A stretch of 64,000 nucleotides of DNA, taken from NCBI GenBank assembly GCA_964373955.1, contig CAYJXA010000001.1:108301-172300 (forward strand). The letters run 5' to 3'. The notes below the pieces were generated by a model that worked only from the letters and a program-made list of their open reading frames with translations, ran no database searches and was not told the DNA's origin. This DNA comes from an uncultured Methanosarcinales archaeon. Lineage in GTDB: Archaea > Nanobdellota > Nanobdellia > Woesearchaeales > GW2011-AR9. This document shows positions 17,926 through 39,168 of this stretch, piece by piece. Position numbers and translations under genes: made by a program. The stretch's first letter is position 1, and each line of letters starts with the position of its first letter.

Positions 17926-18471
17926 CTACACGCATCTGTCATCAGTTACTGAATCATCACCACCATCGGTGAAGGTACATCCTGCTGACGTACATAGATC
18001 TTTCCTTATAAGATTAGACCTGTACCCACTATAATTATATTCATCAATGCGAGGGCATTCCCTAAGTCTTCCAGTACAAAAATCATCATTTAAATCACTT
18101 GTCAGGCGTTTTCCACCGCGTGTGTCACCACCGCTAAAAGTACACCCCGCTTGAGTACAAATAGTCTCTCTAATGTCTGTTGTTGTTTCAACCATTATTC
18201 TTTCCAGGTCTGAGAACTCGTAAGCTTCAAACCCAGTAGGATCAGCAAGTATAATATGACGAATATTCATACAAAGCTGATCCGTAGCATTCTCTTCGAT
18301 TATTGAAGTTGTTTGGGTTTGAGTAGGAACACAACCTCTTGTCAACAATAGAAAAATAGCTAAAATAAGTATGACCACGAAAGCAATGCCAATAAACTTA
18401 AATTTGTGCTTATCCTCCCCTAGTGTACTTTGTCCAGTTGATAATAATTGTCCACTTTTTTGAACCGCCAT
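17926..18471 (-). CDS. Membrane-anchored secreted protein with two CT(Q/S)AGCTF..GGD repeats
   Basis: N-terminal hydrophobic anchor (FKFIGIAFVVILILAIFLLL). Duplicated Cys motif. Confidence 0.45.
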   Translation of the reverse strand: MAVQKSGQLLSTGQSTLGEDKHKFKFIGIAFVVILILAIFLLLTRGCVPTQTQTTSIIEENATDQLCMNIRHIILADPTGFEAYEFSDLERIMVETTTDIRETICTQAGCTFSGGDTRGGKRLTSDLNDDFCTGRLRECPRIDEYNYSGYRSNLIRKDLCTSAGCTFTDGGDDSVTDDRCV

Positions 18472-18606
18472 TCACTCACCTCTGTCTTGAGGAAAAGAGA
18501 AATTGATATATAAATATGTCGCCGTCTTAAAAACAAGAGGTGCCTGGTTAATTCGTAAATAAAACTGTCGATAGGTTTAAATAGAATAATTAATTCAAAA
18601 AGAACT

Positions 18607-19086
18607 ATGAAAGGGGCCAATTATTTTATCTTCACTATCTTTATTATCATACTTGCTTTAGTCAGTGGTTGTACAAAGCAGGAGATAACACCCACTACAA
18701 CCAGTTCTCCCATTATAATATCAAAAGTTTATACTAATGGATTTACTTTAGAGGAATTGGGATTAACCATAGCTTTAGATGGGGCTGTTGTCTATTATGA
18801 AAAAGCTACTGATGAGTATGGTGTTAATTTTGAACAGAATAGAAAAGAAGGAAAGATAAATAATACCCACTTAATCCAATTGATCCAATTATTTGATAGC
18901 AATTTCTTTGGCTTAGAGGGGTATTATGGTTGCGAAAATGCTCCTACAGACGCTGGTACCAATACTTTTAATTTTAAGGATGAAACAAGAGAAAAATCTG
19001 TGGGGATTTATGGTGGTTGCGAACTTCCACCTGAATTGAAATCAATAGATGAAGAATTGAATAAAATTAAGGACAGGTTAAAATAA
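18607..19086 (+). CDS. Putative lipoprotein (lipobox LVSGC)
   Basis: Signal peptide ending in the L-V-S-G-C lipobox, then a Thr/Ser-rich linker. Confidence 0.5.
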   Translation: MKGANYFIFTIFIIILALVSGCTKQEITPTTTSSPIIISKVYTNGFTLEELGLTIALDGAVVYYEKATDEYGVNFEQNRKEGKINNTHLIQLIQLFDSNFFGLEGYYGCENAPTDAGTNTFNFKDETREKSVGIYGGCELPPELKSIDEELNKIKDRLK

Positions 19087-19127
19087 TTACTTTCTTTCTG
19101 TCTCATAGAATATATAAAATCAAAAAA

Positions 19128-19319
19128 TGGCCCCACCGGGACTATCACCAAAGTACACTATTCTGCTCATGTTGCGGGATTTCCAGAGGAATATCCCGCT
19201 TGAATACGACTCGCATAGTGTAACTTGCTTTGAACCCAGGACATCTGCCTGACTTCTAGTGCTTTGTTAAGAACGCACCCGTATAAGAGCAGCGCTCCAC
19301 CAGGCTGAGCTATGGGGCC
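19128..19319 (-). tRNA. tRNA-Ile(UAU) candidate with two introns (37/38, about 31 nt; 59/60 in the T-loop, about 87 nt)
   Basis: Minus strand reads ggcccca-ta-gctc-agcctggtg-gagc-g-ctgct-cttata|intron|a-ggcag-atgtc-ctggg-ttcaaa|intron|t-cccgg-tggggcc-a. Perfect 7-bp acceptor. Classic archaeal D-arm GCUCAGCCUGG. T-tract downstream. ttttaaag box about 25 nt upstream. Confidence 0.55.
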
Positions 19320-19510
19320 ATTCCCGCAAGATACCCCTTTCTTTAAAAGACTTTCTTCTCCCAGAATAAGAAAGGAAGAACAATTTCTTCCGTTTCCTTT
19401 ATAAATAAACCCTTATTTTGCTTTTCCCCACCAGGGAATTACTACAAACTTATATAAACCCAAAAAAGAAGTCTAGGGCTAGAAATTAAATTGACCTTTC
19501 GTGAGAAAAG

Positions 19511-22877: not shown

Positions 22878-22923
22878 TCAAAAATCAAAAAGTTTAAGTA
22901 CAAATATCTCTTTCTAATCCTTG

Positions 22924-23724
22924 ATGAAAGAAACCATTCTCAAATATGCTCTTAAAAATGCACTAGAGTTCCAGGGCAAAGTAAATCAAAATGTGGTGCT
23001 GGGATTAGTTTTAAGAGATCATCCAGAGCTTAAAAAAGATGTTCCCAAGGTTCGGCAAGAAATTGAAAAAGTCATTCTGGAGATTGGAAAACTAACCCTT
23101 GAAGAAAAAAAAGAGAAATTAGAACACCTTGCCCCGAATTTGCTTCAATCACCACCCGAAGAAACCGCCGAAGGACCATTAAAGCCGCTTCCCAAGGCAG
23201 AGAAAGGAGCGGTAAAAGTAAGAATCGCTCCTTCACCGAGCGGAGCGCTTCATATAGGGCATGCGTATGGAGCTTCTTTAAATTACGAATATAGTAAGAT
23301 GTATCAGGGAAAACTCATCCTGCGGATTGAAGATACCAATCCCGAAAATATCTATGAGCCCGCATATAAATTAATCGAGGAAGATCTGCGATGGTTAACG
23401 GAGAATAACGTGGCGGAAGTGCAGGTGCAATCTTCTCGCTTAGGGATTTATTACGATTATGCAGAAAAATTAATTCGCGACGGAAAAGCATATGTGTGCA
23501 CCTGCAATGCGGAAGTTTGGCGGGAGATGAAAAACCATGGTAAAGCCTGCTCTTGTCGAGAACTCCCCACTAAAGAACAGCACGTACGCTATGCGAAAAT
23601 GTTTAGCGGCTATGCAGAAGGGGAGGCGGTACTACGATTAAAAACAAATATCCAAGACAAGACTCCGGCGAGGCGGGATATAGGCATTATGCGTATTGTT
23701 GATCATGTTAATCCAAAGACATGA
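22924..23724 (+). CDS. gltX: Glutamyl-tRNA synthetase, N-terminal part (HIGH region), terminated by an in-frame TGA
   Basis: VRIAPSPSGALHIGHAYGASLNYEYS...LRIEDTNPEN class I Glu/Gln-RS signature. Ends ..RIVDHVNPKT then TGA. Confidence 0.7.
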   Translation: MKETILKYALKNALEFQGKVNQNVVLGLVLRDHPELKKDVPKVRQEIEKVILEIGKLTLEEKKEKLEHLAPNLLQSPPEETAEGPLKPLPKAEKGAVKVRIAPSPSGALHIGHAYGASLNYEYSKMYQGKLILRIEDTNPENIYEPAYKLIEEDLRWLTENNVAEVQVQSSRLGIYYDYAEKLIRDGKAYVCTCNAEVWREMKNHGKACSCRELPTKEQHVRYAKMFSGYAEGEAVLRLKTNIQDKTPARRDIGIMRIVDHVNPKT

Positions 23725-23748: not shown

Positions 23749-24624
23749 ATGGTTTTTTCAGTTGCAGTAGATGACCATGAACTGGGGGTTACTCACGTCT
23801 TAAATGGGAAAGATCAAGCAGATAATGCCGTGAAGGAGCGCTTGATTATGGAATTTTTGGGGTGGAAAGCACCGGAGTATAAACATTGGGGCATGATTAA
23901 TTTTGAAGGGTTTATCTTAAGCACTACTCAAACCAGGAAAGCCATCGAGCAAGGAGAATACAAAGGATGGGATGATATTCGCCTACCCTTTCTTCCTGCA
24001 TTGCGTAAAAGGGGTTACCAGCCGGGAGCTTTCCGCCGTTACGCTGTAGAAATCGGACTCAGCCTAAATGACAAGACCGTAAGTAAAGAAGAATTTTGGA
24101 AAAATATTAATGCCTTCAACAAAGAGATTGTAGATCCCCTTGCAAATAGATATTTCTTTATTGACGATCCCGTAGGAATAGTCATCGAAGGTTGCCAGAA
24201 AAAAAGTGTTGAGCTGGAATTGCATCCTGATTTTCCTTCGCGGGGAAAAAGAACTTTTCTTACTGATGAGAAATTTTACATTAGCATGCACGATTTTAAA
24301 AGACTGGGAGAAGGGTATATTCACCGTTTGATGGATTGTTGCAATTTTGAATTGCGGAAAAATAAATTATATTACCTTTCACAGAGTTATGAAGAATACA
24401 AAAATGCAACGAGGAAAGGACATATCATTCATTGGTTGCCTCACGCCGCTAAGAATGTTCAGATGGAAGTGCTTCAAGAGAATGGGTTAACTACCGCCGG
24501 ATTGGGTGAGGAGCGGTTAGCACAGTTGAAGGAAGGAGAAATAGTCCAGTTGGAACGGCGTTATTTTGCGCGGGTAGTGAGGAAAGAGAAAGAGAAGGTT
24601 ATCTTTTGGTATCTGCACAAGTAA
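23749..24624 (+). CDS. gltX: Glutamyl-tRNA synthetase, C-terminal part (same reading frame as 22924..23724)
   Basis: Begins MVFSVAVDDHELGVTHVLNGKDQ. This is the conserved AVDDH..GITHV block that follows the HPRTG-DKY.VWP segment, so the TGA sits exactly where the conserved Gly is expected. Confidence 0.7.
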   Translation: MVFSVAVDDHELGVTHVLNGKDQADNAVKERLIMEFLGWKAPEYKHWGMINFEGFILSTTQTRKAIEQGEYKGWDDIRLPFLPALRKRGYQPGAFRRYAVEIGLSLNDKTVSKEEFWKNINAFNKEIVDPLANRYFFIDDPVGIVIEGCQKKSVELELHPDFPSRGKRTFLTDEKFYISMHDFKRLGEGYIHRLMDCCNFELRKNKLYYLSQSYEEYKNATRKGHIIHWLPHAAKNVQMEVLQENGLTTAGLGEERLAQLKEGEIVQLERRYFARVVRKEKEKVIFWYLHK

Positions 24625-27649: not shown

Positions 27650-27913
27650 TTAAATAATGTCTTCTTCCGCAACCACAATAAAGTCACCTTTAGCGATAAC
27701 AGCAGAAAAGGGAATCAATATCTGGCCTTCCTTGGTTTTCTCCAATTCCATGCGATCAGTATAAGGAGTAGGATTCTTCAATAAGAGGTGAATTAACTCG
27801 CCGGAACCAACTTCAAAGATGAGATCTCCCACTTCTCCGAATTTCTTACCTGATTTAGAAACAATAGTTTTCCCTATCAACTCCTTAGAATAATTTTTGT
27901 CTTTCTCTTCCAT
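27650..27913 (-). CDS. PRC-barrel domain protein
   Basis: 87 aa. ..LIGKTIVSKSGKKFGEVGDLIFEV..G.L is the PRC barrel pattern. Downstream of the giant gene on the same strand. Confidence 0.55.
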   Translation of the reverse strand: MEEKDKNYSKELIGKTIVSKSGKKFGEVGDLIFEVGSGELIHLLLKNPTPYTDRMELEKTKEGQILIPFSAVIAKGDFIVVAEEDII

Positions 27914-28053
27914 AATGATTCACCTTCTTTGAGTATAATAGCCTGTGGATGGATGGTGACTATATAAAGTTTACGGTGATGGATTGGGATGATTCCCTCT
28001 AACCTATAGTTCAGACTACCGGGAGGGACGTTGATCCAAAAATAACCTCTTTT

Positions 28054-31000
28054 CTATTGCTTTTCTTTTCCAAGCTCTTTATTCAATTTCTCTAATTCTC
28101 CCTCAACCTGCAACAATCTTTTTTTCAGAGAAACTGACTCGCTGAGGGAAGACTTTGGACGAGAAATTCTTTCTGCTTCTTTCGCTTTCCGAGCACTATC
28201 AGCAGGCCCCAATCCGGCGATAGTTTCTTCGATTTGTCCTAGTTTTCGATTTAAGAATCTCTTTCGCTCTAGCGAGTCAACTCGGGAGGAAATATTCTCA
28301 TGGGAAGCAGGAGGTAAAAACTCTGGGGGTAGCTGTCCCGCTCTGAGCATACCGAAAGGGGGTTTTGGCGGTACCACTGTACCCGCTTCTGGCTGGTACT
28401 CCAATGATTTAAGATTTTTGTTAATCTGGTCATACTCTTCCTGTAGTTCTACCTGCTGCTTCTTTCCCCAAGCTGAAGGAAGAGTGACGCTAATGCTTGG
28501 TGCGGTCTTCTCAACTTCTTTCTTCCGTTCTCTGGTTTGGATAAAAGCTTTATATTTTCGATATTCTTCCCGCATCAAAATGGAAGTCAGGAAGAGCAAA
28601 GGTAAAAAGATAAGGAGAGCAATTAATCCTACCCAATACGAACTATACTGCAACGCCCTCCCTTTAAACTGTTGGAAGAATGCGCCCCCAACTAGAGCTC
28701 TTGCTTTAGGAGGCACAACTTCAGGGGCAACTACTACCGGAAGAGGTGCTGCCGCCATCACTTCGATCTGACGATGACTGGTAATGTGATAATCTCCATA
28801 CGTTAATTCAATAGTAAGAGTATACTGCCCTGGCTCAAGATCAGAAGGCACAAAGAGAGTTGCATTTTCTATTTCCTCCCTGCCGCTTTGAATAAAAATA
28901 ACATCTTTCCCCTCGGTTTTTATTACCCCCTCTTTCTCCAGGGTGAAATCCAAAACGACGTCTCCGGAAATATTGCTTACCGCTTTCATTAAATATCTCA
29001 CCATGATATTTTCCCCAGCCGGTACCGGAGAGGTAACATCAAGTATCCTTAGGTCAAAGAGTTTTACACAGGAGTGTTGAATGCACACTTCATCAGTACT
29101 ACATTGATCATCAGTGATACATTCATACTCTATGCATTGGTTATTGAAACAATATTGATCTGCTTCACAATCAGCATCGGTGGTGCATTCTACTTTTGGT
29201 TTACTTGCTCCACCTCCGCCGCCTCCACCCCCCGTTACCGCTTCGCTTTCCGTTGTAATCGTTTCACTGGCAGTAAAACTGCTGAAACTGGAAGTATTAA
29301 AAGTGAGTGTTCCGCTGCTGTAACTGATAAGAGTACAACCTGAGCCAAGACAATCAGATCCGCTTATCTCGCTAGCGCTTGATCTAAAGAGTGGATCCTT
29401 AGTCACCCCCGTAACTGAACTAAAAGTAAGCCCTTGAAGAATGATTGTTCCTGTCCGATTTAGGCCTACGAACGCAGAAGTATTAAAAGCGAAAAAATTA
29501 TCTGCAATGATGAGGTTCTTTCCATGCCCCAGCTCAAAGGGAAGACTGATATTAGAGATATTTGTCCATTGCACTGAACCAAAACTATTGTTATATTTCA
29601 TAGTTTGGGCGCAGGCAGATCCGGTAAAGAGAAGAGTAGTATTCTCAAACTGGTTATCCACAAAAGTGTTATTGCAAGAGTTCTCAACTGCTACTCCGGA
29701 AGTTATATTTCTCGTTTCCCGCACTTGTAAAGAGAGAGGATAGGTATATCCGCTACTAACATTAAAACTGGAGTTAAACAGGGCAGTAAGATTATCAATA
29801 TAATTAGAGGAATTGCCATTAGCTATTAAAGCATTAGTGATGTAAAAATCACAAATAGATCCGGGGAGATTAGTGACAACATTACTACAATTAGTTAATC
29901 CGTTAGTATCAGCAGAATCTTTCCGAAGAAAGATGGTCTGGTTAGAAGGAGTTGATCCTGAACTAGAATTAAGAAAACCAAGAATAAGATTAAAATTGTT
30001 ACTGCCATCCGCCATAATGATGGTGGTGTTATCTGCAGAAACATTAACGGAGCCGCCGCCGCCGGTGTACCTTAGGCTGCCATTATAAATCACCCCATTA
30101 TACGTCAAAGGCGAATAGGAGCTTCTAAAAGATATGATAGAAGATATTCGACTGCTATCATTGATAATATTACTCTCTAGATAGGAATGGTTAGAAAGAT
30201 TAAGAAGTACCGCCTGAACCCCCTCTTCATAAATAAGATTCCCCGTGAGATTTGCTTGGCTGCTGTTGAAAATTTGTATAGCCCAAGCAACATTAGAGTG
30301 TAAAACAGTATCAGTAATAATGCTCTTGCTGGTGTTATCAACAGAAATTCCCTGGGTATTCGTTGTAAAGGTGCTATTGCTTACTGTTACATTATTAGTA
30401 TTAGATTCAAAAACCCCCAGAGAAAAATTACTGATGAATATATTTTTAACAGTGACATTATTTACATCACTTATATTTACTCCTAACCCTACGCCATTGC
30501 CGATAATCGCATACCCTGCACCATCAATGATAATATTACTTCTCAGAACGGTAAAACAGGTTCCAGAGGAGGTAATATTTCTCGTTAAAGTAACGCTGGA
30601 GTTAACAGAGCCACACAATGTGTCAAGAGCCGCAAAACTGCTAAAAGAGGTAGTATTAAAGAGAAGTACTTGGCTAACATTATCAAAACTAAAAATAGTG
30701 CAGGAAGTGCCATTACAATTGGTTCCGCTGGTTCTTATTTCATTGGCATTAGTATTAAAAGTCTCCAATCTTCGGATATTGACCACTTCACTAAAACCAA
30801 GCCCCCTAAGAGTAATATTTGCGCTGGAGTTAATTCTTCCAGAGGTGAAAGCGGAAGTATTTACCGCAAGGGTATTATTTCCAATAAAGATATTCCTACC
30901 TACACCGATACCATTAGAATTATTAACATCTAAAGTTAAATCCCGAAGGAAACTACCCGTACCATTATCAATCCATTCGATCCCTCCAAAAGAGTTATTG

Positions 31001-34000
31001 TAAATAAGATAGTTACTGACATTAGCAGCACTATCGTCAGAAATTTCCACAGACCCATTAGAACTGATATTAATGTTGACGAAATAATTATTTCTTATAC
31101 AGTCTCCACTAGTGCAATCTCCCAGCGAAAAAGAGTTAAGGAAGAGAGCGCTAGACGTGCCAAAGTGAGTAATATTTTCATCTGTAAAAGTGTTGTTCTC
31201 AACTACTCCCTGCCCCTGAAGATCATAGGATATGCCCAGGCTGCCCCCCCCGGAATAGAAACGATTAGAAGAAAAATTCATAGTATCCACTCCAGCTATG
31301 AGCACGGTGCTCCCAAAAGCAGCAAAATCTATCAGGGTATTAGAGAAGAAAATTCCCCCGGACACATTACGTAAAATTATTCCCCCCTGGTTACTGTTAT
31401 TAGTTCTATTCACGTAATTTCCAGTGATATTAAAGCTTTTTGATTGAAATGAAATATTAGTATTAATTGCCGTCCCCGAAGAATTTAATTCAAAGAAGTT
31501 GTTAGCGATGGTCGTATGATTAGAGTTTTGTACAAAAAGAAGATCGAGACCTGATCTGGTTCGTGTTACTAAGGTCATATTGGTAATATTAGTACCGTTC
31601 GAATTCTGAACACGAATGTTAGTAGTGAAATTATTCAGCGTGAAATTAAAAAGAGTAATATTGTTAAAACCATTAATAGTTACTCCCGTCCCCGAGCCAT
31701 TACTGTAAACGGAATGGCCAGAACCATTGATGAAGAGGTTAGAATTATTAATAATAAAACAGTCCCCGGTACTACTTAAATCATGATTTAAGGTAAAACT
31801 AGCGGTTACCCTCCCACAGAAATTACTGATGGTAAGATTTCTTGTTTCAGAAACTGCAGAAGTTCCCCCGTCACTACAGTTAATAGACCAGTGGTATTCC
31901 CCATTGAGAAGAGAAGCATTAGCAGTTATACTAGTAGCGGTTGCATTTCGGGTAGAACTATTTCGGCCATAAGGGGCTGTAACCCCCTCGCTATTGTTCA
32001 AATAAAGAGTACAGTCTAAAGTTCCCTGTTGCGCTAGATCATCCGTGACATTAAAAGCAAAACGAGGAGTACTATTAGTATTGTTCAAAGTGTTATTGGG
32101 AGGAGATAAAAGGGAGATAGTAGGAGAACTGTTATCAGCGGTGACGGCAGTGAAACTGCCAAAAGAAGTCATGTTAAAGAGAAGAACTTGAGAGGCATTA
32201 TCAAAACTCAAAATAAGACAGGATGTTCCATTACAATATTCCCCTCCAGTTTTAATTTCATCGATATTCGTGCTAAACGTTTCTAACCGCTGGATGTTAG
32301 CTACGGAATTAAATCCTAAACCGACTAGGGTAAGATTGGCGCTAGAATTAATTCTTCCTGACGTAAAAGCAGACGTGTTAATGGTAACGCTATTATTACG
32401 AATAAAGAAACTCCTCTCTAATCCTATCCCCAAAGCATTACCAACCTGAAGATCTAAATCATCCAGGAAACTATTGTTAGTCCATTGAATTTTACCAAAG
32501 GAGTTGTTATATACAAAAGAATTGAGGTTAGAGTTTCCTGATTGATCATCTATTTCAGAAGTACTAGCGCTGGAGATATTATTATTTCGAAGAGTATTGT
32601 TGGCGGCACTAGCTTGGATAATAATACTTCTAACGGTATCAGTAGTGAAGTTATTCTCCACAAGCGTGTTTCGAGAGGCGTTCTGTCCAAGATTAACCAA
32701 CCCTCTTATAATATTAGACGAGATGTTGTTATCGCTGGAAGATTCACCGGTAGTAGTAATAAAGTTGAAATCAAGAGCAATACCGTCTCCCAAGCTGGTG
32801 ATATTATTAAAGTCTACAATACTAAAACTAGAGTTGACAAAATAAAGACTGCTGCTGTTAGTGGTAACAATTCTATTAAAACTAATGTTGTGGGACAGCG
32901 CATGTTGGGCTAGGATTCCCTCGGCTGCATTTCCAGTCGTATTAACATTATTAAAAATGATGGTGTTGTTTCTTTCACCCGGATTGATTAATATCCCTAC
33001 CGCTCCTAATCCCGAAGTGATAACCGTATTAGATTGCAGACGATTGGAAGAAACAGCAATGTCCAACCCATAAGAATTATTTCCTGAAGTCACCACTTTA
33101 TTTGAATCGATAACCAGGAGGGTTGAGGTGAGTGATCTTATTCCAGGTGACGAGTTAGTAAAAGTAGTGACATTATTTCTGCTGATGTTAGACCGGTTCG
33201 CGCTGGAGAAACTAATTCCTATACTGCCTGTGCTTGCATTGCCAGAAATAATGGTGTTATTCCAGATGGTGTGATTGACGGAGTCTCTTACATCTATTAC
33301 GGTGGAAAAGTTAACCGCGATTAGGTTTCGAACGGTGAGATTATTGAATCCAATTGCTAAAACTGCCGAGCCAGATCCATCTCCCGTTATGGTAAATCCC
33401 GCACCCTCAATCAGGATGTTAGAAGCGTTGACGATAAAGCACGTGCCATCAGTACTGATATTATTGTTAATAGTGACATCATTATTAATAGTGCCGCATT
33501 GAGTTACATTGCTTCCCGAAGTAGCGGAATAATTACTAAATGAAGCAACTGTCGCAGTTAAGATTCCCGTAGTAGAATCATAGGAAGCGATAGTGCAGAG
33601 AGTATTATCGTTATCACACCTCACCCCATCTTTCAATAAGAATGGCTGGGTAGAGTAAGTTAAATTTTTTATGTCTATACGGGCGGATCTATTAAGGTTA
33701 AGCGACTGAGCTGTGTCGAGAATACCCGTGAGATTTTGCTGTAAAAAGATAGTTTGTCCAAGCACTAAACTCATATTGGTAGTGAGATTTTCCCTGGTCC
33801 AGTTTATCATCCCAAAAGAATTATTGTAAATGAGCGTGTTGTTAGTCTCTAAGCCACTCAGATCATAAATACTAAAATTTACTACGGCATTGATGGTATT
33901 ATTCCGGAAAGTATTGTTATAGGTGCTAACATCACTTATCTCTATAGTGGCCAAGGTGGAATTGCCAGTAATATTGTTAGCGATAAAAGAGTTATTACTA

Positions 34001-37000
34001 TTATTGATGAGCAGAAGACCATAACTATTCCAGCCAATGATAGTATTAGATGCGATTATCCCCCCGCGGGTGTTCAACATATACAATCCTGGTGCTATTG
34101 TCCCGGACGTGTTCATATAATTCTGGGAGATGTTAGTCCTATTTGCAAAATTTCTAAGTTCTATTGACGCGCTAGCATTGGCAATAGTACTGAGAGTATT
34201 ATTAAAGAGTACACCGTCAAGAGCGCTGTCCCACCAGATTGCGTCTTTGTTAGAGGAAGTATCCGCCTGTTCAACCATCAGGCAGTTTTTAATGGTGACG
34301 TTATGAAAGCCGGTGTTATTAACTCCCTTTCCCTCTGCACTGGAAGAACCATACCTAATAACATTTCCAGTACAATTAATGAAAATGTTGGATGCGTTTA
34401 TAATGAAACAAGTGTTCTCCGCGCTTACATTCTGGTTGAGAGTAAAATTTCTATTGACATACCCACAACTAGCAATGTCCGCAGCAAAACTGCTAAACGA
34501 AGTAGTATTGAAACGCAAGATGCCGGTGTTTACATTATAATTAAAGACAAGGCAAGAATTGCTGCTGATACAATCAGTTCCTGCTCTGATCACGGTAGTA
34601 CTATTCTCATCATACTCTTCCAAACGACGGATACTTTCAACCCTGCTGACATTAAGGGCATAGAGGGTAAGATTCGCGCTGGAGTTTATTCTCCCCGATA
34701 CAAATGCGGAAGTATTAACGGTGATAATATTCTGCCCAATGAAAATATTTCTACCTAATCCAATCCCCAGACTATTATTAGCATTCAAGGTTAAATCCTG
34801 CTGAAAGCTCGTATTCGTCCATCGGATCTCCCCAAAGGTGTTGTTATAAATGAGATAATTTACCAAACCTGCTGATGACGAATCAGAAATCTCAGTGTTA
34901 TTTGACGTAAAGTTATTGTTTAAGAAGGTATTATTTTCAGAAGTGCTTAAAATTGACAACACCGTCGATTTACTCGAATTAAGGGAATTGTAATCGAAGA
35001 GGTTATAGCTGCCATTAACTAGGTTAATAGCAAGGTTAGGGCCAGAGCCAGTCGTATTGATGATGTTAGAACTAACATTATTATAGTTAGAAGTCCTTAA
35101 ACCAAGACCAGTAGAACCATTCCCGATAGAAAACAGAGTATTAGAAAGTAGGATATTGCCCTCTGAAAAGTTGAGCAGGATTCCATGAGAATTGGTAGCA
35201 TTAATAGTGAGGGTGCTGGTGTTAATCACAGAACTATTTGTGTCTTGAAAAACGATACCTGGTCTTTCTCCATCCCCCGCTGCGGTTTCGATAGTGACAT
35301 TAGAGATGGTAATATTAAACCCAGCAGTGATATGAATCCCTTCTGAAAAATTGTTGAGAGCAATATTCCTAATAGTAATATTCCTAAAGCCTGAACTGTT
35401 GATTCCAAACCCGCTTCCGGTTCCCGTGAGTACATACCCGGCACCATTAATCAGGATATTGGAAGCATTAATAGTTAAACAAGTTCCCGTAAAGGTTGTA
35501 TTTTGAGTTAAAGTGAGATTCCCATTGACCGTTCCACAAATGGAAGACCCGTTTCCCAAGGCAGCAAAACTGCTAAAAGAAGTAGTATTAAACCGCAAAG
35601 TACTATCTGCTCCCATACTAAACACGGTACAACTACTCCCCAGGCAATCCACCCCATTGTTAGAAATATTGGTAGAATTCGTATCATAAGCAGGAACTTT
35701 CAGAATAGAATTTATCGCCGTAAAGTTCAAACCAAAGACGGTTATGTTAGCTGTTCCGTTAATCCAGCTGCTCCCGAACGTAGAAGTATTTAACGCAATA
35801 ACATTGCTCCCTATAAAAAGATTCCTTGCTAAACCAATACCCTCACTGCTTGCAACAGAAAGTGTTAGGTTCCGAGTGAAGCTCCTTGTTCCATTATCAA
35901 TCCATTTTATCTCACCAAAAGAGTTATTATAGATGAGATAATTACTGACATTGGTAGCACTATTATCCTGTATCTCCTGGGACCCATTTGTGCTTATATT
36001 CACATTAATGAAATAATTATTTCTCACGCAATCCCCACCGGAACATTCTCCTTGCGAGAAAGAATTAAGAAAAACGGCGCTTTGAGTTCCAAAACTAGTA
36101 ATGTTGTCATTGGTGAAAGTGTTATTTTCCACAACGCCCATCCCTTGAAATCCAAAGGCGGTTGACAAGCTCCCTCCCCCAACGTATACTTTGTTAGAAG
36201 AAAAATTACTGTTAGTAACTCCCATTAAAAGAATCGCCGTTCCACCACTTCCAAAATCGAAGAGGGTATTGGAATTGAAATTCAAGCCAGTGATGTTTCC
36301 CAGATTGAATCCCCCCTGATTAGAATTATTTGTTCTATTAACGTAATTATTAGTAATGTTTAAATCGGTATTTAGAAAAAGAATGTTAGTATTAAGGGTC
36401 ATGGAAGAGGTATTCTGCTCAAAATAATTATTAACAATAGTGGTATGGTTTACATTTTGTAAGCTTATCAAAGCTTGCGTATTAGTTATGCGAGATAGAA
36501 AAGTAACGTTAGTGATATTAGTACCATTAGAATCCTGGACATAAATTTGTTGCGAGAAATTGTAAATAGTGAGATTAAAGATGGTAATATTATTGAAACC
36601 AGTGATATTAATTCCCACGCCAGAACCATTGCTAATAAGGGAATAACCAGAACCATTGAGAAATATGTCTGAACCATTAATGATAAAGCAGTGCGTATCC
36701 GCAACAATATTCTGAGTAAGAGTATAAACTCCGCGAGCAGTAAGATTAGCACAAGTTGATTGCAGGACCGTAGGGATGATGTATCCTGTGGGTGAAATGA
36801 TATTTGAAGGGTTATTCTCTGTTACTATTTCAACTGAAGCCCCAGTAATACTGTTTCCTGTTCCAAGGAAGGAATCCAGTGTAGTCACAATTATTTCTTT
36901 TTCGGAAAAAAAATGTCCCGGAATAGTATCAAAAACCAGAGTGGTAGTTGGCTCACTGACCAATAAGACAAAAATAAAAGAAATCATTCCTGCAAGCAAG

Positions 37001-37062
37001 AAATATTCTTTAGTCTCGTTCAGTGAATTCCTTTTCCAGTTTTTTCTCTCTCCTGATTTCAT
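28054..37062 (-). CDS. Giant (3002 aa) surface protein: N-terminal signal/anchor, multiple N-glycosylation-rich parallel beta-helix repeat modules, Cys-rich knot, C-terminal TM helix and cytoplasmic coiled-coil tail
   Basis: Uninterrupted 9 kb ORF. Asn/Thr/Ser-rich with hundreds of N-x-S/T sequons. The recurring TSFSSFAA motif marks about 6 modules. GGGGGGGG linker, CTTDADCEADQYCFNNQCIEYEC knot, then a TM (WVGLIALLIFLPLLFLTSILM) and a K/E-rich tail. Confidence 0.8.
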   Translation of the reverse strand: MKSGERKNWKRNSLNETKEYFLLAGMISFIFVLLVSEPTTTLVFDTIPGHFFSEKEIIVTTLDSFLGTGNSITGASVEIVTENNPSNIISPTGYIIPTVLQSTCANLTARGVYTLTQNIVADTHCFIINGSDIFLNGSGYSLISNGSGVGINITGFNNITIFNLTIYNFSQQIYVQDSNGTNITNVTFLSRITNTQALISLQNVNHTTIVNNYFEQNTSSMTLNTNILFLNTDLNITNNYVNRTNNSNQGGFNLGNITGLNFNSNTLFDFGSGGTAILLMGVTNSNFSSNKVYVGGGSLSTAFGFQGMGVVENNTFTNDNITSFGTQSAVFLNSFSQGECSGGDCVRNNYFINVNISTNGSQEIQDNSATNVSNYLIYNNSFGEIKWIDNGTRSFTRNLTLSVASSEGIGLARNLFIGSNVIALNTSTFGSSWINGTANITVFGLNFTAINSILKVPAYDTNSTNISNNGVDCLGSSCTVFSMGADSTLRFNTTSFSSFAALGNGSSICGTVNGNLTLTQNTTFTGTCLTINASNILINGAGYVLTGTGSGFGINSSGFRNITIRNIALNNFSEGIHITAGFNITISNVTIETAAGDGERPGIVFQDTNSSVINTSTLTINATNSHGILLNFSEGNILLSNTLFSIGNGSTGLGLRTSNYNNVSSNIINTTGSGPNLAINLVNGSYNLFDYNSLNSSKSTVLSILSTSENNTFLNNNFTSNNTEISDSSSAGLVNYLIYNNTFGEIRWTNTSFQQDLTLNANNSLGIGLGRNIFIGQNIITVNTSAFVSGRINSSANLTLYALNVSRVESIRRLEEYDENSTTVIRAGTDCISSNSCLVFNYNVNTGILRFNTTSFSSFAADIASCGYVNRNFTLNQNVSAENTCFIINASNIFINCTGNVIRYGSSSAEGKGVNNTGFHNVTIKNCLMVEQADTSSNKDAIWWDSALDGVLFNNTLSTIANASASIELRNFANRTNISQNYMNTSGTIAPGLYMLNTRGGIIASNTIIGWNSYGLLLINNSNNSFIANNITGNSTLATIEISDVSTYNNTFRNNTINAVVNFSIYDLSGLETNNTLIYNNSFGMINWTRENLTTNMSLVLGQTIFLQQNLTGILDTAQSLNLNRSARIDIKNLTYSTQPFLLKDGVRCDNDNTLCTIASYDSTTGILTATVASFSNYSATSGSNVTQCGTINNDVTINNNISTDGTCFIVNASNILIEGAGFTITGDGSGSAVLAIGFNNLTVRNLIAVNFSTVIDVRDSVNHTIWNNTIISGNASTGSIGISFSSANRSNISRNNVTTFTNSSPGIRSLTSTLLVIDSNKVVTSGNNSYGLDIAVSSNRLQSNTVITSGLGAVGILINPGERNNTIIFNNVNTTGNAAEGILAQHALSHNISFNRIVTTNSSSLYFVNSSFSIVDFNNITSLGDGIALDFNFITTTGESSSDNNISSNIIRGLVNLGQNASRNTLVENNFTTDTVRSIIIQASAANNTLRNNNISSASTSEIDDQSGNSNLNSFVYNNSFGKIQWTNNSFLDDLDLQVGNALGIGLERSFFIRNNSVTINTSAFTSGRINSSANLTLVGLGFNSVANIQRLETFSTNIDEIKTGGEYCNGTSCLILSFDNASQVLLFNMTSFGSFTAVTADNSSPTISLLSPPNNTLNNTNSTPRFAFNVTDDLAQQGTLDCTLYLNNSEGVTAPYGRNSSTRNATATSITANASLLNGEYHWSINCSDGGTSAVSETRNLTISNFCGRVTASFTLNHDLSSTGDCFIINNSNLFINGSGHSVYSNGSGTGVTINGFNNITLFNFTLNNFTTNIRVQNSNGTNITNMTLVTRTRSGLDLLFVQNSNHTTIANNFFELNSSGTAINTNISFQSKSFNITGNYVNRTNNSNQGGIILRNVSGGIFFSNTLIDFAAFGSTVLIAGVDTMNFSSNRFYSGGGSLGISYDLQGQGVVENNTFTDENITHFGTSSALFLNSFSLGDCTSGDCIRNNYFVNINISSNGSVEISDDSAANVSNYLIYNNSFGGIEWIDNGTGSFLRDLTLDVNNSNGIGVGRNIFIGNNTLAVNTSAFTSGRINSSANITLRGLGFSEVVNIRRLETFNTNANEIRTSGTNCNGTSCTIFSFDNVSQVLLFNTTSFSSFAALDTLCGSVNSSVTLTRNITSSGTCFTVLRSNIIIDGAGYAIIGNGVGLGVNISDVNNVTVKNIFISNFSLGVFESNTNNVTVSNSTFTTNTQGISVDNTSKSIITDTVLHSNVAWAIQIFNSSQANLTGNLIYEEGVQAVLLNLSNHSYLESNIINDSSRISSIISFRSSYSPLTYNGVIYNGSLRYTGGGGSVNVSADNTTIIMADGSNNFNLILGFLNSSSGSTPSNQTIFLRKDSADTNGLTNCSNVVTNLPGSICDFYITNALIANGNSSNYIDNLTALFNSSFNVSSGYTYPLSLQVRETRNITSGVAVENSCNNTFVDNQFENTTLLFTGSACAQTMKYNNSFGSVQWTNISNISLPFELGHGKNLIIADNFFAFNTSAFVGLNRTGTIILQGLTFSSVTGVTKDPLFRSSASEISGSDCLGSGCTLISYSSGTLTFNTSSFSSFTASETITTESEAVTGGGGGGGGASKPKVECTTDADCEADQYCFNNQCIEYECITDDQCSTDEVCIQHSCVKLFDLRILDVTSPVPAGENIMVRYLMKAVSNISGDVVLDFTLEKEGVIKTEGKDVIFIQSGREEIENATLFVPSDLEPGQYTLTIELTYGDYHITSHRQIEVMAAAPLPVVVAPEVVPPKARALVGGAFFQQFKGRALQYSSYWVGLIALLIFLPLLFLTSILMREEYRKYKAFIQTRERKKEVEKTAPSISVTLPSAWGKKQQVELQEEYDQINKNLKSLEYQPEAGTVVPPKPPFGMLRAGQLPPEFLPPASHENISSRVDSLERKRFLNRKLGQIEETIAGLGPADSARKAKEAERISRPKSSLSESVSLKKRLLQVEGELEKLNKELGKEKQ
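30250..36780 (-). repeat. Internal large segmental repeats within the giant gene (for example about 0.9 kb at 35.9-36.8 kb, about 70% identical at protein level to 30.25-31.2 kb)
   Basis: Protein segments FIINGSDIFLNGSGYSLISNGSGVGINITGFNNITIFNLT... and FIINNSNLFINGSGHSVYSNGSGTGVTINGFNNITLFNFT... align over about 300 aa. Confidence 0.5.
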
Positions 37063-37325
37063 ATCTGTTTTCCTTTCCTCATAAATTCTACTCTCACCAT
37101 GGCTCCTAATTGAAACTCAGGCCAAAATTTCTGCGGCACGGGAATACGACGCTGAATTTTTCCCTGCGCTTGCACTTTATCAACATAAAACAATGAAGCA
37201 TCTTCCAATTGTTCCACTTTTACAAAAGAACCGAGAGGAAACTCTCTCCAAAACTTCTTGGGAAGCGGAATTTTCCGTTGCCTGCGTCCCTGTCCTTGAA
37301 TCTTATCCACAAAGTAGATAGACAT
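37059..37325 (-). CDS. Tandem-duplicated AbrB/MazE/SpoVT-fold (swapped-hairpin) DNA-binding protein
   Basis: Two homologous halves (YFVDKIQGQGRRQRKIPLPKKFWREFPLGSFVKVE and FYVDKVQAQGKIQRRIPVPQKFWPEFQLGAMVRVE). Its stop overlaps the ATG of the giant gene (ATGA). Confidence 0.55.
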   Translation of the reverse strand: MSIYFVDKIQGQGRRQRKIPLPKKFWREFPLGSFVKVEQLEDASLFYVDKVQAQGKIQRRIPVPQKFWPEFQLGAMVRVEFMRKGKQI

Positions 37326-37496
37326 GTTATAGGTTTATTTCTTTATTAAATAGGTTTATTTTAAATATTTTATTGCCTTTATTAGACATATCACAAGTTT
37401 ATTTATAAAGTTTTTGGCGGATTGTTGGTCACAAATGGCAGCGGCGAGAACGGAGATACTGCTCTTTAGCTTAAAAATGAGGAACAACAAACAAGC

Positions 37497-37877
37497 CTAC
37501 TTAGAAAGATATTTTTCATAAAAAACACTGCCCACGTCTTTCTTCAAATCGCGGACCAGATTTTGGAAGGAGCGCTCATCAGCAGGACTGTTTTTATGTA
37601 AAAGATACGTCGTAACTTTCGCCTCTACAACACGATGGATGCTGTTAAACATTTGGCTGGCATTGCGATGACCCCCCTGTTCAATTTCTGCTTCGAGAAG
37701 CGCTCTTCGTTCGGCAAAAGCATTCATGAAATTATTCACAAAGTTCCCTCTCGTTTGGGTAGACGTTAAAAAATTATGGTCATTAATTCCTTTATTGCTG
37801 CCAGCATTTCGAGTAGTTTTAGTATAGGCTTTTAGCAAACTTAATTCAAATTCAAGAAGGAAGGCTTGAGTAATCAT
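37497..37877 (-). CDS. Hypothetical protein
   Basis: 126-aa ORF. No confident motif. Confidence 0.35.
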   Translation of the reverse strand: MITQAFLLEFELSLLKAYTKTTRNAGSNKGINDHNFLTSTQTRGNFVNNFMNAFAERRALLEAEIEQGGHRNASQMFNSIHRVVEAKVTTYLLHKNSPADERSFQNLVRDLKKDVGSVFYEKYLSK

Positions 37878-37931: not shown

Positions 37932-38717
37932 ATGTGGATATATGATTTAAACCCCGTATTGGTACAGCTCGGCCCATTGCAAATACGATGGTACGGGTTG
38001 GTGTACGTTTTAGGATTTTTTGCAGCAATATGGTGGCTTCATCAAGCACAAAAAAGGGGGAAACTTTCTCTTGCCCCAGATGAAATATGGGATTTGATAT
38101 TTTACCTTATGGTGGGAGTAATTATTGGCTCCCGCCTTTTTATGATATTTTGGAATCCAGAAATATATCTCTACCATCCAATAAACCTCTTTAAAATCTG
38201 GGAAGGAGGAATGAGTTTCCATGGCGGTTTTGTAGGAATAATTACCGCTTGCTGGATTTATTGTAAAAGAAAGCGATTAGATTTTTGGCGGATAGCTGAT
38301 ATCATTTCTATTCCGGCGATGCTGGCCCTGGCGTTAGGAAGAATCGCCAATTTTATTAATGGGGAATTAGTCGGCAGGGTTTGGAATGGACGTTGGTGCG
38401 TAGTATTCCCAGAGTATGGCCAGGAATGCAGACACCCCAACATGATTTATTCTGCTCTACAGCGGTTAACGGTATTTAGTTGGCTCTGGTTCCTCAGCAT
38501 AAGAGATCGGTTTGCTCCGGGATTTATTTTCTGGAACTTCGTCTTTTGGGAAGGAGTAGGCCGATTTTTGATGGATTTTTTCCGGGAAGATAGCCTTTAC
38601 GTTGGGCTTAGCTTGGGGCAATGGTTTAGCCTCGCGATGATTATAGTAGCATTGGGGGTATTCTGGAAGAGATACAGAGAAGACTGGAAAGGGATGTTTT
38701 CTCCACAAAGTTCTTAA
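37932..38717 (+). CDS. lgt: Prolipoprotein diacylglyceryl transferase (bacterial-type Lgt)
   Basis: LGPLQIRWYGLVY, IWEGGMSFHGGFVG and GRIANFINGELVGR match Lgt signatures (HWYGLMY, VWDGGMSFHGG, GRLGNFINGELWGR). Confidence 0.8.
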   Translation: MWIYDLNPVLVQLGPLQIRWYGLVYVLGFFAAIWWLHQAQKRGKLSLAPDEIWDLIFYLMVGVIIGSRLFMIFWNPEIYLYHPINLFKIWEGGMSFHGGFVGIITACWIYCKRKRLDFWRIADIISIPAMLALALGRIANFINGELVGRVWNGRWCVVFPEYGQECRHPNMIYSALQRLTVFSWLWFLSIRDRFAPGFIFWNFVFWEGVGRFLMDFFREDSLYVGLSLGQWFSLAMIIVALGVFWKRYREDWKGMFSPQSS

Positions 38718-38754: not shown

Positions 38755-39168
38755 ATGAAAACACCACTAATTATAGCAGTGGTGATAGGTGTTCTTGTGT
38801 TAATTGTAGGTTGTACGCAACAAGCTACGATTACAGAAGTAAAGTCAACCGCACCGCCAGCATTAGAAGATGATTCTACAGCAGTGCCAGTTCTATCGAG
38901 ACAAAGTTACCAGGTAGTAATCGAAGACGGCAAACTCATGCCTGTAGATGTGGAAATTAATGCTGGTGATACCGTAGAATGGGTCAACAAAGATGAAGTT
39001 CGTTATACTTTATTGTTCAGCGGATCTGAAGAGAGATTATCTGTTGGGGGAACCTTTGAGCAACAGTTTACAGAACCGGGCATAGCACGATACATTGTAG
39101 CAGTCGTAGAAGAAGACCGGGACGATAATCAAGAACGAGAACTGCAGGGTACAGTAATAGTAAATTAA
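38755..39168 (+). CDS. Putative lipoprotein (lipobox LIVGC), beta-sandwich-like
   Basis: MKTPLIIAVVIGVLVLIVGCTQQ signal plus lipobox. 38 nt downstream of lgt. Confidence 0.55.
   Translation: MKTPLIIAVVIGVLVLIVGCTQQATITEVKSTAPPALEDDSTAVPVLSRQSYQVVIEDGKLMPVDVEINAGDTVEWVNKDEVRYTLLFSGSEERLSVGGTFEQQFTEPGIARYIVAVVEEDRDDNQERELQGTVIVN

Follow-up and report, generated by a model that had tools for sequence, protein, structure and literature searches.

A small duplicated barrel protein encoded upstream of giant surface-protein genes in Woesearchaeota-type archaea: a candidate regulator with a phased palindrome in its promoter

A Woesearchaeota-type archaeon (DPANN) carries a gene for a small protein of 88 aa directly ahead of a gene for a giant surface protein of 3002 aa, and of about 33 distinct Woesearchaeota-type loci only one departs from this order. 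In the promoter of the small gene, an asymmetric 18-bp palindrome, TAAACTTACTGTATATCT, adjoins the TATA box. The pairing across loci and the promoter palindrome are new here; a literature search returned no description of the small/giant gene pair, of DUF7489, or of a function for DUF1905. On balance, the small protein is probably a dedicated DNA-binding factor for the giant gene, and one that would also regulate its own promoter.

RESULTS

Gene layout and conservation of the gene pair

The window, that is, the whole 64-kb stretch of DNA that was analyzed, contains the following genes at this locus.

27650..27913, minus strand: PRC-barrel gene, 87 aa; a neighbour, probably with its own promoter
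28054..37062, minus strand: giant gene, 3002-aa surface protein; its ATG overlaps the TGA of the small gene (ATGA)
37059..37325, minus strand: small gene, 88 aa; basic, internally duplicated product, predicted to be a RIFT-type cradle-loop barrel and a candidate DNA-binding regulator
37497..37877, minus strand: ORF126, conserved hypothetical; recurs upstream of the small gene in several loci
37932..38717, plus strand: lgt homologue (prolipoprotein diacylglyceryl transferase); divergent, a conserved neighbour of the small gene

An earlier note on this DNA had described the ORFs of 88, 3002, and 87 aa as a three-gene operon. All three are present on the minus strand, and the stop codon of the small gene shares the four letters ATGA with the start of the giant gene. 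The small/giant part of the proposed operon stands: ATGA overlap or near-adjacency was found in almost all loci, which points to translational coupling, with a downstream giant ORF of 1016 to 5509 aa. The ectodomains of these giants differ among loci (beta-helix, Laminin_G_3, DUF2341, and CARDB). In the single exception, the small gene is followed not by a giant gene but by one for a cytoplasmic AlbA_2 protein. Thus, the co-occurrence of the two genes, which had been proposed as a check, holds.

The third gene fits the operon less well. Its product was correctly assigned as a PRC-barrel protein (PF05239; 37.5 bits against a cut-off of 21.2, E 2.4e-9, residues 5-82). A gap of 140 nt separates it from the giant gene, with a T-run after the giant's stop codon and a TATA-like box and a Shine-Dalgarno-like sequence before the PRC gene, and a PRC gene follows the giant in only two related loci (L008 and L021). 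Because of these promoter signals and the partial synteny, the PRC-barrel gene lies probably outside the operon and is probably transcribed separately.

The small gene is conserved as a protein, as indicated by 102 homologues and by the codon-position differences among homologues (779/400/1693); the homologues share 58-88% identity, which bears out the expectation that the small ORF is conserved in related genomes. The family is narrow: an exhaustive search of 1.8 billion representatives gave just 16 clusters, some of them spurious. Two of these, P0110 (a vertebrate Ig-like repeat protein) and P0115, were rejected as spurious repeat matches. The contigs with the distant relatives P0113 and P0116 (92-102 aa) are very short; small ORFs surround these genes, and no giant gene can be seen on them. 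No relative was found among the viral contigs searched, and there is thus no sign of a viral origin. Elsewhere, the small gene occurs in tandem copies and in a fused four-repeat version, which fits with an oligomeric binder.

The giant surface protein

The earlier note had read the giant protein as a membrane-anchored, sequon-rich beta-helix surface protein, and this was confirmed by six modules, profile matches above cut-off, and hydrophobic helices at both ends. Its parts are arranged as follows.

36943..37005, minus strand: aa 20-40, N-terminal hydrophobic signal-anchor helix, preceded by a basic tail (KNWKR)
36832..36849, minus strand: aa 72-77, ITGASV, the window copy of the family motif [LIF]TG[AGS]x[VI], after the N-terminal helix
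29275..36765, minus strand: aa 100-2596, six beta-helix modules (from module BLAST, Pfam, and the module model): M1 100-499, M2 505-859, M3 862-1183, M4 1185-1637, M5 1731-2143, and M6 2146-2596
28753..29202, minus strand: aa 2621-2770, 8-Cys tandem motif, then a beta-rich domain
28567..28647, minus strand: aa 2806-2832, C-terminal transmembrane helix
28057..28566, minus strand: aa 2833-3002, charged tail of 170 aa, predicted cytoplasmic

The six modules are homologous, with pairwise identities of 27-62% and E values down to 1e-149 in module-versus-module BLAST; self-BLAST of the whole protein gave no off-diagonal matches. Every module ends in YNNSFG...FNTTSFSSF, and a 95-aa insert separates M4 from M5. 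A right-handed parallel beta-helix is indicated by Pfam profiles above the gathering score, namely NosD PF05048 (45.5 bits, cut-off 23.6) and Beta_helix PF13229 (27 bits, cut-off 25.9, 6 stretches), and by fold matches: a module model, in which the N-terminal 170 aa were predicted at pLDDT >85, weakly matched NosD, alginate epimerase, and tailspikes (E 4e-3 to 6e-2).

The "hundreds" of N-x-S/T sequons in the earlier account come down to about 200. The protein has 202 in total, and the 198 in the ectodomain are about twice the 94 ± 8 expected from composition. The supposed Cys knot corresponds to the 8-Cys tandem motif, for which all Pfam matches stayed below threshold (DUF7107, E 0.074). The beta-rich domain after this motif appeared CARDB-like by eye, by comparison with homologues.

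Across loci, N-terminal features of the giants are conserved despite the variable ectodomains; the N-terminal cytoplasmic and the C-terminal tails are poorly conserved. No lipobox, a possible reason for the neighbouring lgt, was seen in the N termini of the giant proteins. The probable role of the giant is in attachment or contact at the surface of the cell.

Predicted fold of the small protein

The halves of the small protein are identical at 21 of 40 positions (52%), which indicates an internal duplication. The 10.5-kDa protein is basic (pI 10.4; 18 K+R against 8 D+E), and the family's invariant residues comprise Q, R, and K of the beta1-beta2 turn, together with the KFW helix, in either half. 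The conserved turn residues are Q12, Q16, R17, and K18 in the first half and Q54, Q58, R59, and R60 in the second. It was predicted with a pLDDT of 93.6 as a single-chain pseudo-dimer, a six-stranded barrel of two beta-beta-alpha-beta halves (secondary structure E-E-h-E twice) with pseudo two-fold symmetry. The best structural matches of the model were PG0164/DUF1905 and the RIFT barrel PhS018, and its superposition on members of these two types was near full-length. PG0164/DUF1905 and PhS018 are cradle-loop relatives of AbrB. Before the last strand of each half, where a GD-box would be expected, there is a G/D-S/A turn (PLGS and QLGA; PLDS in homologues). Membrane-fusion proteins, riboflavin kinase, helicase 1B barrels, VAT-N/Cdc48-N, and the barrel domains of the RNA helicases Sen1/SETX and Upf1 were also among the structural matches.

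The earlier note had taken the protein for two AbrB/MazE-like halves in one chain and expected two swapped-hairpin barrels. The single-chain pseudo-dimer of two halves survives from that reading; membership in the AbrB/MazE sequence family does not. The model is a six-stranded RIFT-type cradle-loop barrel like PhS018 and PG0164, not the AbrB-type eight-stranded barrel made by two hairpin-swapping chains. PF04014 matched neither the window protein (E<=1) nor any of 49 family members (E<=10). In hhalign, the half-repeat profile was compared with the N-domains of AbrB, Abh, SpoVT, and MazE; the probability was 0.9%, at which the columns R-x-x-I-P-x-x-[KR][KR] were paired with the AbrB DNA-binding loop and helix.

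Other family searches were similarly sparse. A PDB sequence search with full-length and half-repeat profiles gave chance matches only, NCBIfam and PHROGs gave none, and Pfam gave DUF1294 and DUF7489 below threshold. For DUF7489 (PF24315), one homologue reached 27.5 bits against a cut-off of 27, 18 of 49 members matched only at E<=10, and the window protein did not match. The Pfam DUF1905 profile had no match in the family, and Cren7 gave a faint match in one member (E 0.11). Thus, no sequence homology to known DNA-binding families was detectable.

A phased palindrome in the small-gene promoter

The left half of the promoter palindrome is AAACTTAC and the right half is GTATATCT. In the window, it was found beside a TATA-box-like element that was read from the sequence.

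37402..37409, minus strand: TATA-box-like TTTATAAA, directly upstream of palindrome site 1
37384..37401, minus strand: palindrome site 1, TAAACTTGTGATATGTCT, 19.2 bits (16.3 bits when left out of training)
37320..37337, minus strand: palindrome site 2, TAAACCTATAACATGTCT, 15.2 bits; overlaps the ATG of the small gene, 64 bp from site 1

These two sites, both in the upstream region of the small gene, were the sole matches of at least 12 bits in the whole window. A de novo search converged on the motif (total score 333), whereas no shuffled set exceeded 210. At 14 bits or more, 20 matches were found in 3.9 kb of upstream regions, compared with 3 in about 197 kb elsewhere. When promoters were held out one at a time, 13 of 16 scored above all 658 AT-rich control windows. 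In independent metagenome loci, the palindrome was present in about 17 of 19 evaluable cases. Over the whole collection, one locus (L027) lacks it and in one (L018) it is not significant. It accompanies the small gene even in loci without lgt.

The sites occur in both orientations and are often repeated, and 23 of 29 spacings deviate by no more than 2 bp from a multiple of 21 bp. In some loci they extend to the start codon; sites also lie upstream of the TATA box or overlap it. The juxtaposition of TATA-like box and palindrome recurs in related loci, and part of the conservation could reflect promoter architecture, because the first half merges with the TATA box. The asymmetry of the palindrome is consistent, which fits two diverged halves in one chain.

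DISCUSSION

A probable dedicated switch for a costly gene

The small gene is most likely a dedicated switch for the costly giant gene, given the conserved phased palindrome in its promoter. The idea of a dedicated transcription factor, already raised in the earlier note, thereby gains independent support. The model draws on gene structure, conservation, the predicted fold, the gene pairing, and the specificity and phasing of the motif. The 88-aa protein would be a cytoplasmic, sequence-specific DNA-binding regulator, its RIFT-type pseudo-dimer serving as a one-chain structural counterpart of AbrB-type dimers. It would bind the asymmetric 18-bp palindrome, which adjoins or overlaps the TATA box in the promoter of the small gene; occupancy would control the access of TBP, TFB, and RNA polymerase, most likely as negative autoregulation. 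We infer both that the small protein, and not another factor, binds the palindrome and the sign of the regulation. Through the ATGA overlap, a single transcript would yield both regulator and giant, their translation being coupled, so that the regulator would set the expression of the giant protein. The controlled product would be very costly: a 9-kb gene encoding a sequon-rich protein anchored at both ends.

Some observations run counter to the regulator reading. The nearest structures, PhS018 and PG0164, are without established function, RIFT barrels also occur in non-DNA-binding contexts, and an identity of 58-88% is unusually high for a single-target regulator. The same goes for the negative homology searches against known DNA-binding families, the merging of the motif with the TATA box, the AlbA_2 locus, and loci L027 and L018.

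Alternative roles of the small protein

The small protein could instead serve the giant's biogenesis from the cytoplasm, as a dedicated chaperone, targeting factor, or anchor, with another factor binding the palindrome. It would then act on the N-terminal leader (either the basic tail with its KNWKR-like motif, or the nascent helix and the [LIF]TG[AGS]x[VI] segment) or on the cytoplasmic tail. ATGA coupling is typical of proteins that act together, the giants have N-terminal features in common despite variable ectodomains, and the protein-binding barrels VAT-N/Cdc48-N are among the structural matches. However, we consider this role unlikely. The tails of the giants are poorly conserved compared with the strongly conserved small protein, the predicted location of the TG motif is extracellular, and positive charge with conserved Q/R/K turns suits nucleic acid better than a basic peptide. 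In addition, a phased palindrome that travels with the small-gene promoter would be left unexplained.

A nucleic acid other than promoter DNA could also be the target. As an RNA or RNA polymerase binder, the small protein would be an RfaH-like processivity, anti-termination, or translation factor for a long gene rather than an operator-binding repressor. This would suit the strict association with genes of 3-16 kb, the basic charge, the Sen1/SETX and Upf1 barrels among the structural matches, and the sites that reach the start codon in some loci and could be transcribed. Yet the sites are found in both orientations, and those that lie ahead of the TATA box or overlap it would be missing from the transcript. 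Moreover, 21-bp phasing is a property of duplex DNA, and the small protein bears no resemblance to NusG/Spt5 or any other known elongation factor. Such a role is quite improbable.

A general chromatin or housekeeping nucleic-acid binder, adjacent to the giant gene by inherited synteny with no functional link, is very improbable. Its very high conservation, small size, and basic charge do resemble those of nucleoid proteins, and one member has the faint Cren7 match, but the ATGA overlap is kept while downstream ectodomains and upstream neighbours change, the family is very narrow, and the palindrome is confined to the small gene's own promoter. Finally, an ordinary AbrB/MazE/VapB-type antitoxin or transition-state regulator is scarcely credible and such family membership is largely refuted: the beta-beta-alpha-beta halves and the R-x-x-I-P-x-x-[KR][KR] columns resemble the AbrB DNA-binding loop and helix, but PF04014 and hhalign gave no support, no AbrB or MazE chain was among the top structural matches, and one chain with six strands differs from an eight-stranded swapped-hairpin dimer. 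A toxin-antitoxin reading was rejected, with no toxin gene adjacent.

Wider reading and significance

Beyond a dedicated regulator of the giant gene, a bolder and rather doubtful reading is that the single-chain RIFT/PhS018-like barrel represents a new archaeal transcription-factor class, its diverged halves reading an asymmetric palindrome. It would belong to a fixed, co-evolved "regulator plus leader" cassette whose ectodomains Woesearchaeota swap: the divergent lgt, then the small gene, then a giant gene with the conserved N-terminal anchor and TG motif. In a more unusual version, the small protein would do double duty, binding the operator and also partnering the giant's leader during translation.

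Most Woesearchaeota, like most other DPANN archaea, have not been brought into culture; the leading candidates for attaching them to their hosts are giant surface proteins. Variable domains, and genes that interrupt assemblies, make such proteins difficult to identify. The small conserved partner gene and its 18-bp promoter motif provide a simple searchable marker for giant-protein loci, as well as a concrete, testable regulatory circuit with a synthesisable protein and a defined DNA target. If the reading is true, it would give a first function to the orphan PhS018/DUF1905-like single-chain cradle-loop barrels, mainly discussed as an evolutionary intermediate. It would also offer a case from nature in which a pseudo-dimer goes with an asymmetric operator. 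The cassette would then mark the host-contact apparatus of uncultured Woesearchaeota.

Comparison with known systems

PhS018 of Pyrococcus horikoshii (PDB 2glw) is likewise a single-chain RIFT barrel of the cradle-loop group. It has no detectable sequence similarity to the small protein, and no function, operator, or conserved partner gene of PhS018 is on record, whereas the small-protein family is confined to Woesearchaeota-type DPANN and coupled to giants. PG0164/DUF1905 (PDB 2d9r) is bacterial, shares about 13-15% identity with the small protein, and has no established function.

AbrB, SpoVT, and MazE have a related cradle-loop architecture, with a two-fold DNA-binding face made of a beta-hairpin turn and a short basic helix. 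The mode of action is probably the same, with oligomers on AT-rich phased sites and autoregulation, as in AbrB (PMC4333400). Each AbrB chain contributes four strands to a homodimer with swapped hairpins; in the small protein, a single chain supplies three strands from each half. MraZ was not found among the structural matches of the small protein. It is a bacterial tandem AbrB-like regulator of about 150 aa, with two repeats in one chain, that forms large oligomers and, as the first gene of its operon (the dcw cluster), binds repeated sites in its own promoter. MraZ belongs to a different sequence family, and the dcw cluster rather than a giant surface gene lies downstream of it.

Giant surface proteins of DPANN archaea have been reported as the SPEARE proteins of Nanohaloarchaeota (PMC6642349) and as large proteins in Woesearchaeota and Pacearchaeota (PMC8204110). 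In the searchable literature, none of these comes with a dedicated upstream barrel protein or a conserved operator. The giant described here resembles them in being very large, lineage-specific, and extracellular, in a small-genome and probably host-associated archaeon, with a proposed role in contact; it differs in its six-module beta-helix and in the membrane helices at both ends.

Gene layout and conservation of the small gene

The small gene, the giant gene and a PRC-barrel gene follow one another on the same strand.

Genes of the cassette and its downstream neighbour (window positions)
37059-37325, minus strand: small ORF, 88 aa
28054-37062, minus strand: giant ORF, 3002 aa
27650-27913, minus strand: PRC-barrel ORF, 87 aa, after a 140-nt gap behind the giant ORF

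The small ORF ends in ...CAG ATA TGA, and the giant ATG lies inside ATATGA. As the earlier note had claimed, the stop and start overlap, with ATGA common to both. The ORF also passed the conservation check proposed there: 102 homologues were found (82 to 109 aa, 58 to 88% identity), and most nucleotide differences fell at third codon positions (779/400/1693 by position). The small protein is genuine, and purifying selection acts on it. Its family is narrow: when 1.8 billion representatives were searched exhaustively with a profile, 16 clusters emerged, some of them spurious, and viral contigs yielded no relatives.

The surrounding genes are archaeal (ABCE1/RLI, endonuclease dU, adenylosuccinate synthetase, and class I tRNA synthetase), and homologues with informative names came from Woesearchaeota/Nanoarchaeia metagenome-assembled genomes (MAGs). 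The window thus derives from a Woesearchaeota-type DPANN archaeon. Some MAGs carry labels, for example "Methanosarcinales" and "Nomurabacteria", that probably stem from mislabeling or mis-binned contigs. The class I Glu/Gln-tRNA synthetase region comprises two adjacent plus-strand ORFs (22921-23724 and 23749-24624). In the second, the match takes in just the C-terminal portion of the catalytic domain (profile positions 189-310) and the anticodon-binding domains; the synthetase thus seems divided between the two ORFs, whether by a gene split, a frameshift or an error in sequencing.

Fold of the small protein

The two halves of the small protein (pI 10.4) are 52% identical, and the AlphaFold2 model from a 49-sequence alignment (pLDDT 93.6) contains beta-beta-(short helix)-beta twice, which confirms the proposed single-chain pseudo-dimer. 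The assignment to the AbrB fold and family did not hold. No AbrB, MazE or MraZ chain appeared among the structural matches listed, no family member matched the AbrB/MazE Pfam model, and profile-profile comparison with AbrB-type domains gave 0.9%, which is not significant, yet paired the structurally expected columns. PhS018, among the best structural matches, has been described as a highly two-fold symmetric RIFT protein (PMC11258233); it has also been related, as an intermediate, to the swapped-hairpin barrel of AbrB and predicted to bind DNA (PMC4333400). As modeled, the small protein is the six-stranded single-chain relative.

Some genomes encode a fused four-repeat form of 180 to 194 aa (locus L015, 2322-2864, and the profile-search relative P0103). 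Four loci (L021, L054, L055, and L060) carry two tandem small genes (about 103 aa and about 85 to 94 aa), with palindromes upstream of the first.

The small gene is paired with giant surface-protein genes

Related loci were gathered through exact-protein look-ups, species-representative genomes and metagenomes. A very large ORF followed the small gene in about 33 distinct loci, most with the same ATGA overlap, so the suggested co-occurrence with giant genes was confirmed. Complete paired ORFs spanned 1136 to 2034 aa and gene calls reached 5509 aa, with many running off the contig. The one exception was L033, a contig of only 1.2 kb, where the ORF overlapping the small-gene stop by ATGA (281-1171) encodes a cytoplasmic Schlafen/AlbA_2 protein (E 8.5e-18).

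The window's giant protein begins with a basic tail and a hydrophobic helix (aa 20-40), followed by an extracellular part of ~2,760 residues, a second helix (aa 2806-2832) and a charged 170-aa tail. The ectodomain contains 198 N-x-S/T sequons versus 94 ± 8 expected from composition, and six homologous modules (27 to 62% pairwise identity), each starting with CGxVN...C.IIN.SN and ending with YNNSFG...FNTTSFSSF. NosD and Beta_helix scored above Pfam cut-offs. The model of module 2, which has high confidence over the first ~170 residues only, retrieved right-handed beta-helix proteins (NosD, alginate epimerase, and phage tailspikes). Thus, the earlier description of a repeated beta-helix, sequon-rich surface protein with a C-terminal helix was essentially right. 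Of the "Cys knot", an 8-Cys tandem motif is present, but family matches were sub-threshold only.

Ectodomains of the paired giants vary (beta-helix, Laminin_G_3, DUF2341, and CARDB), and several have a C-terminal membrane helix and cytoplasmic tail. At the N-terminus, almost every one has a basic tail, a single hydrophobic helix and, 5 to 60 residues after it, [LIF]TG[AGS]x[VI] (typically LTGAAV), which may be a processing or sorting site. The motif is near-exclusive to these giants: across the 164 ORFs of 150 aa or longer from the first loci, 17 of its 18 matches lay in giants.

Giant proteins carrying the TG motif
Window: ITGASV, aa 72-77 (36832-36849)
Related loci: L002, L004, L008, L010, L012-L016, L018, L020, L021, L028, L034, L035, L037, L041, L047, L048, L050, L052, L055, L058

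Several giants carry [KR]x[WC]KR in their short cytoplasmic N-terminal tail (RKNWKRN at aa 5-12 in the window, KNWKRT in L010, NGWKRT in L012, SGWKRM in L028, with C replacing W in L002, L004, and L041); some (L002, L017, L020, and L041) have L-x-W-[IV]-[DE]-x-[EK]-L in its place. In L006, a 1248-aa giant with its own C-terminal helix and tail (10258-14004) overlaps by 4 nt a second giant ORF of >1800 aa carrying LTGAAI (14001-19469). L007, L009, and L036 are similar, and such loci look like arrays of giant genes behind one small gene. In the giants of L006, L008, and L021, the C-terminal helix is followed by a common, conserved domain in the cytoplasmic tail (...LEQWVREMQAM...YVVAYYR), which differs from the window's charged tail. 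A second large ORF in the window (6890-10945, minus strand, 1351 aa) has neither a small barrel gene nor a palindrome match nearby.

Neighboring genes

The 87-aa neighbor is a true PRC-barrel protein, highly conserved and likewise following the giant in L008 (93% identity) and L021 (83%); other loci with visible giant 3' ends lack it. Between the giant stop and this gene lie a T-run, then a TATA-like box and a Shine-Dalgarno-like sequence of its own. The proposed three-gene operon was therefore not upheld, and, from sequence features, the PRC-barrel gene is treated as a frequent neighbor outside the small-giant unit.

Upstream neighbors of the small gene (window positions)
37497-37877, minus strand: 126-aa hypothetical protein without family match
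37932-38717, plus strand: lgt homologue (prolipoprotein diacylglyceryl transferase; PF01790, E 1.8e-68)
38755-39168, plus strand: small cupredoxin-like gene adjoining lgt, weak plastocyanin/amicyanin matches only

Lgt lies divergently upstream in the window and in 26 of the gathered loci (including L002, L006, L008, L012, L014, L018-L021, L028-L030, L034, L038, L043, and L047). A bacterial-type Lgt kept beside a giant surface-protein cassette in an archaeon was unexpected; no lipobox cysteine was seen in the giant N-termini. In L002, a cupredoxin-like gene also adjoins lgt (8254-8709; recorded Pfam matches Cupredoxin_1/Copper-bind). The 126-aa protein, which may be a further neighborhood member, recurs at 38 to 56% identity on the same strand upstream of the small gene (L021 1101-1463, L034 4092-4460, L038 5445-5813, L047 4080-4442; also L054, L055, L060, and L062).

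A palindromic element marks the small-gene promoter

Reading of the upstream regions revealed a recurrent element beside the TATA box. An unsupervised search for motifs arrived at TAAACTTACTGTATATCT (15.9 bits); its total score was 333, and shuffled sets reached no more than 210. In the training loci, 20 matches of at least 14 bits fell in 3.9 kb upstream of the small gene versus 3 in about 197 kb elsewhere. Across the 64-kb window, only two sites reached 12 bits: one at 37384-37401, immediately following TTTATAAA, and one at 37320-37337, overlapping the start codon. In leave-one-out analysis, 13 of 16 held-out promoters scored above all 658 AT-rich control windows. Among later metagenome loci outside the training set, about 17 of 19 evaluable non-duplicate loci had a match of 14 bits or more in front of the (first) small gene; just two matches of that strength lay elsewhere, one in a duplicate of a training locus. 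Loci in which lgt is not the upstream neighbor (L004, L010, and L015-L017) have the element as well, so it accompanies the small gene.

The element occurs in both orientations, with at least two sites in 25 of 35 distinct loci. Spacings were within ±2 bp of 21, 42, 63 or 105 bp in 23 of 29 cases, so that the sites lie along the same face of the DNA helix. The palindrome is consistently imperfect (AAACTTAC versus AGATATAC), the asymmetry that a binder with two non-identical halves would be expected to select.

Regulation model

We infer that the small protein most likely binds the element, each half using its conserved Q/R/K turn and KFW helix, and that it occupies the phased sites cooperatively and, at its own promoter, competes with or positions the basal machinery of transcription. 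With giant-gene translation coupled to the small gene, it would thereby gate the giant gene. The element lies over or just downstream of the TATA box, where archaeal repressors classically bind; therefore, negative autoregulation, which would keep expression of a costly 9-kb gene at a fixed level, is favored, with activation as the alternative. Taken as a whole, including binding, sign of regulation and signal, this gating model seems to us slightly on the probable side.

Rival readings, each considered less likely, are a biogenesis partner of the giant protein, an RNA or elongation factor, a general chromatin protein and a canonical AbrB antitoxin. The last is disfavored by the structural and Pfam comparisons.

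In the papers searched, no description was found of the small-protein family, its obligatory giant pairing or the operator. The cassette is useful as a marker and a testable circuit; only if the more unusual readings hold would it amount to a new principle. AbrB-like regulators as an idea, and the fold class, were known before, as were, in general terms, giant surface proteins of DPANN archaea (PMC8204110, PMC6642349).
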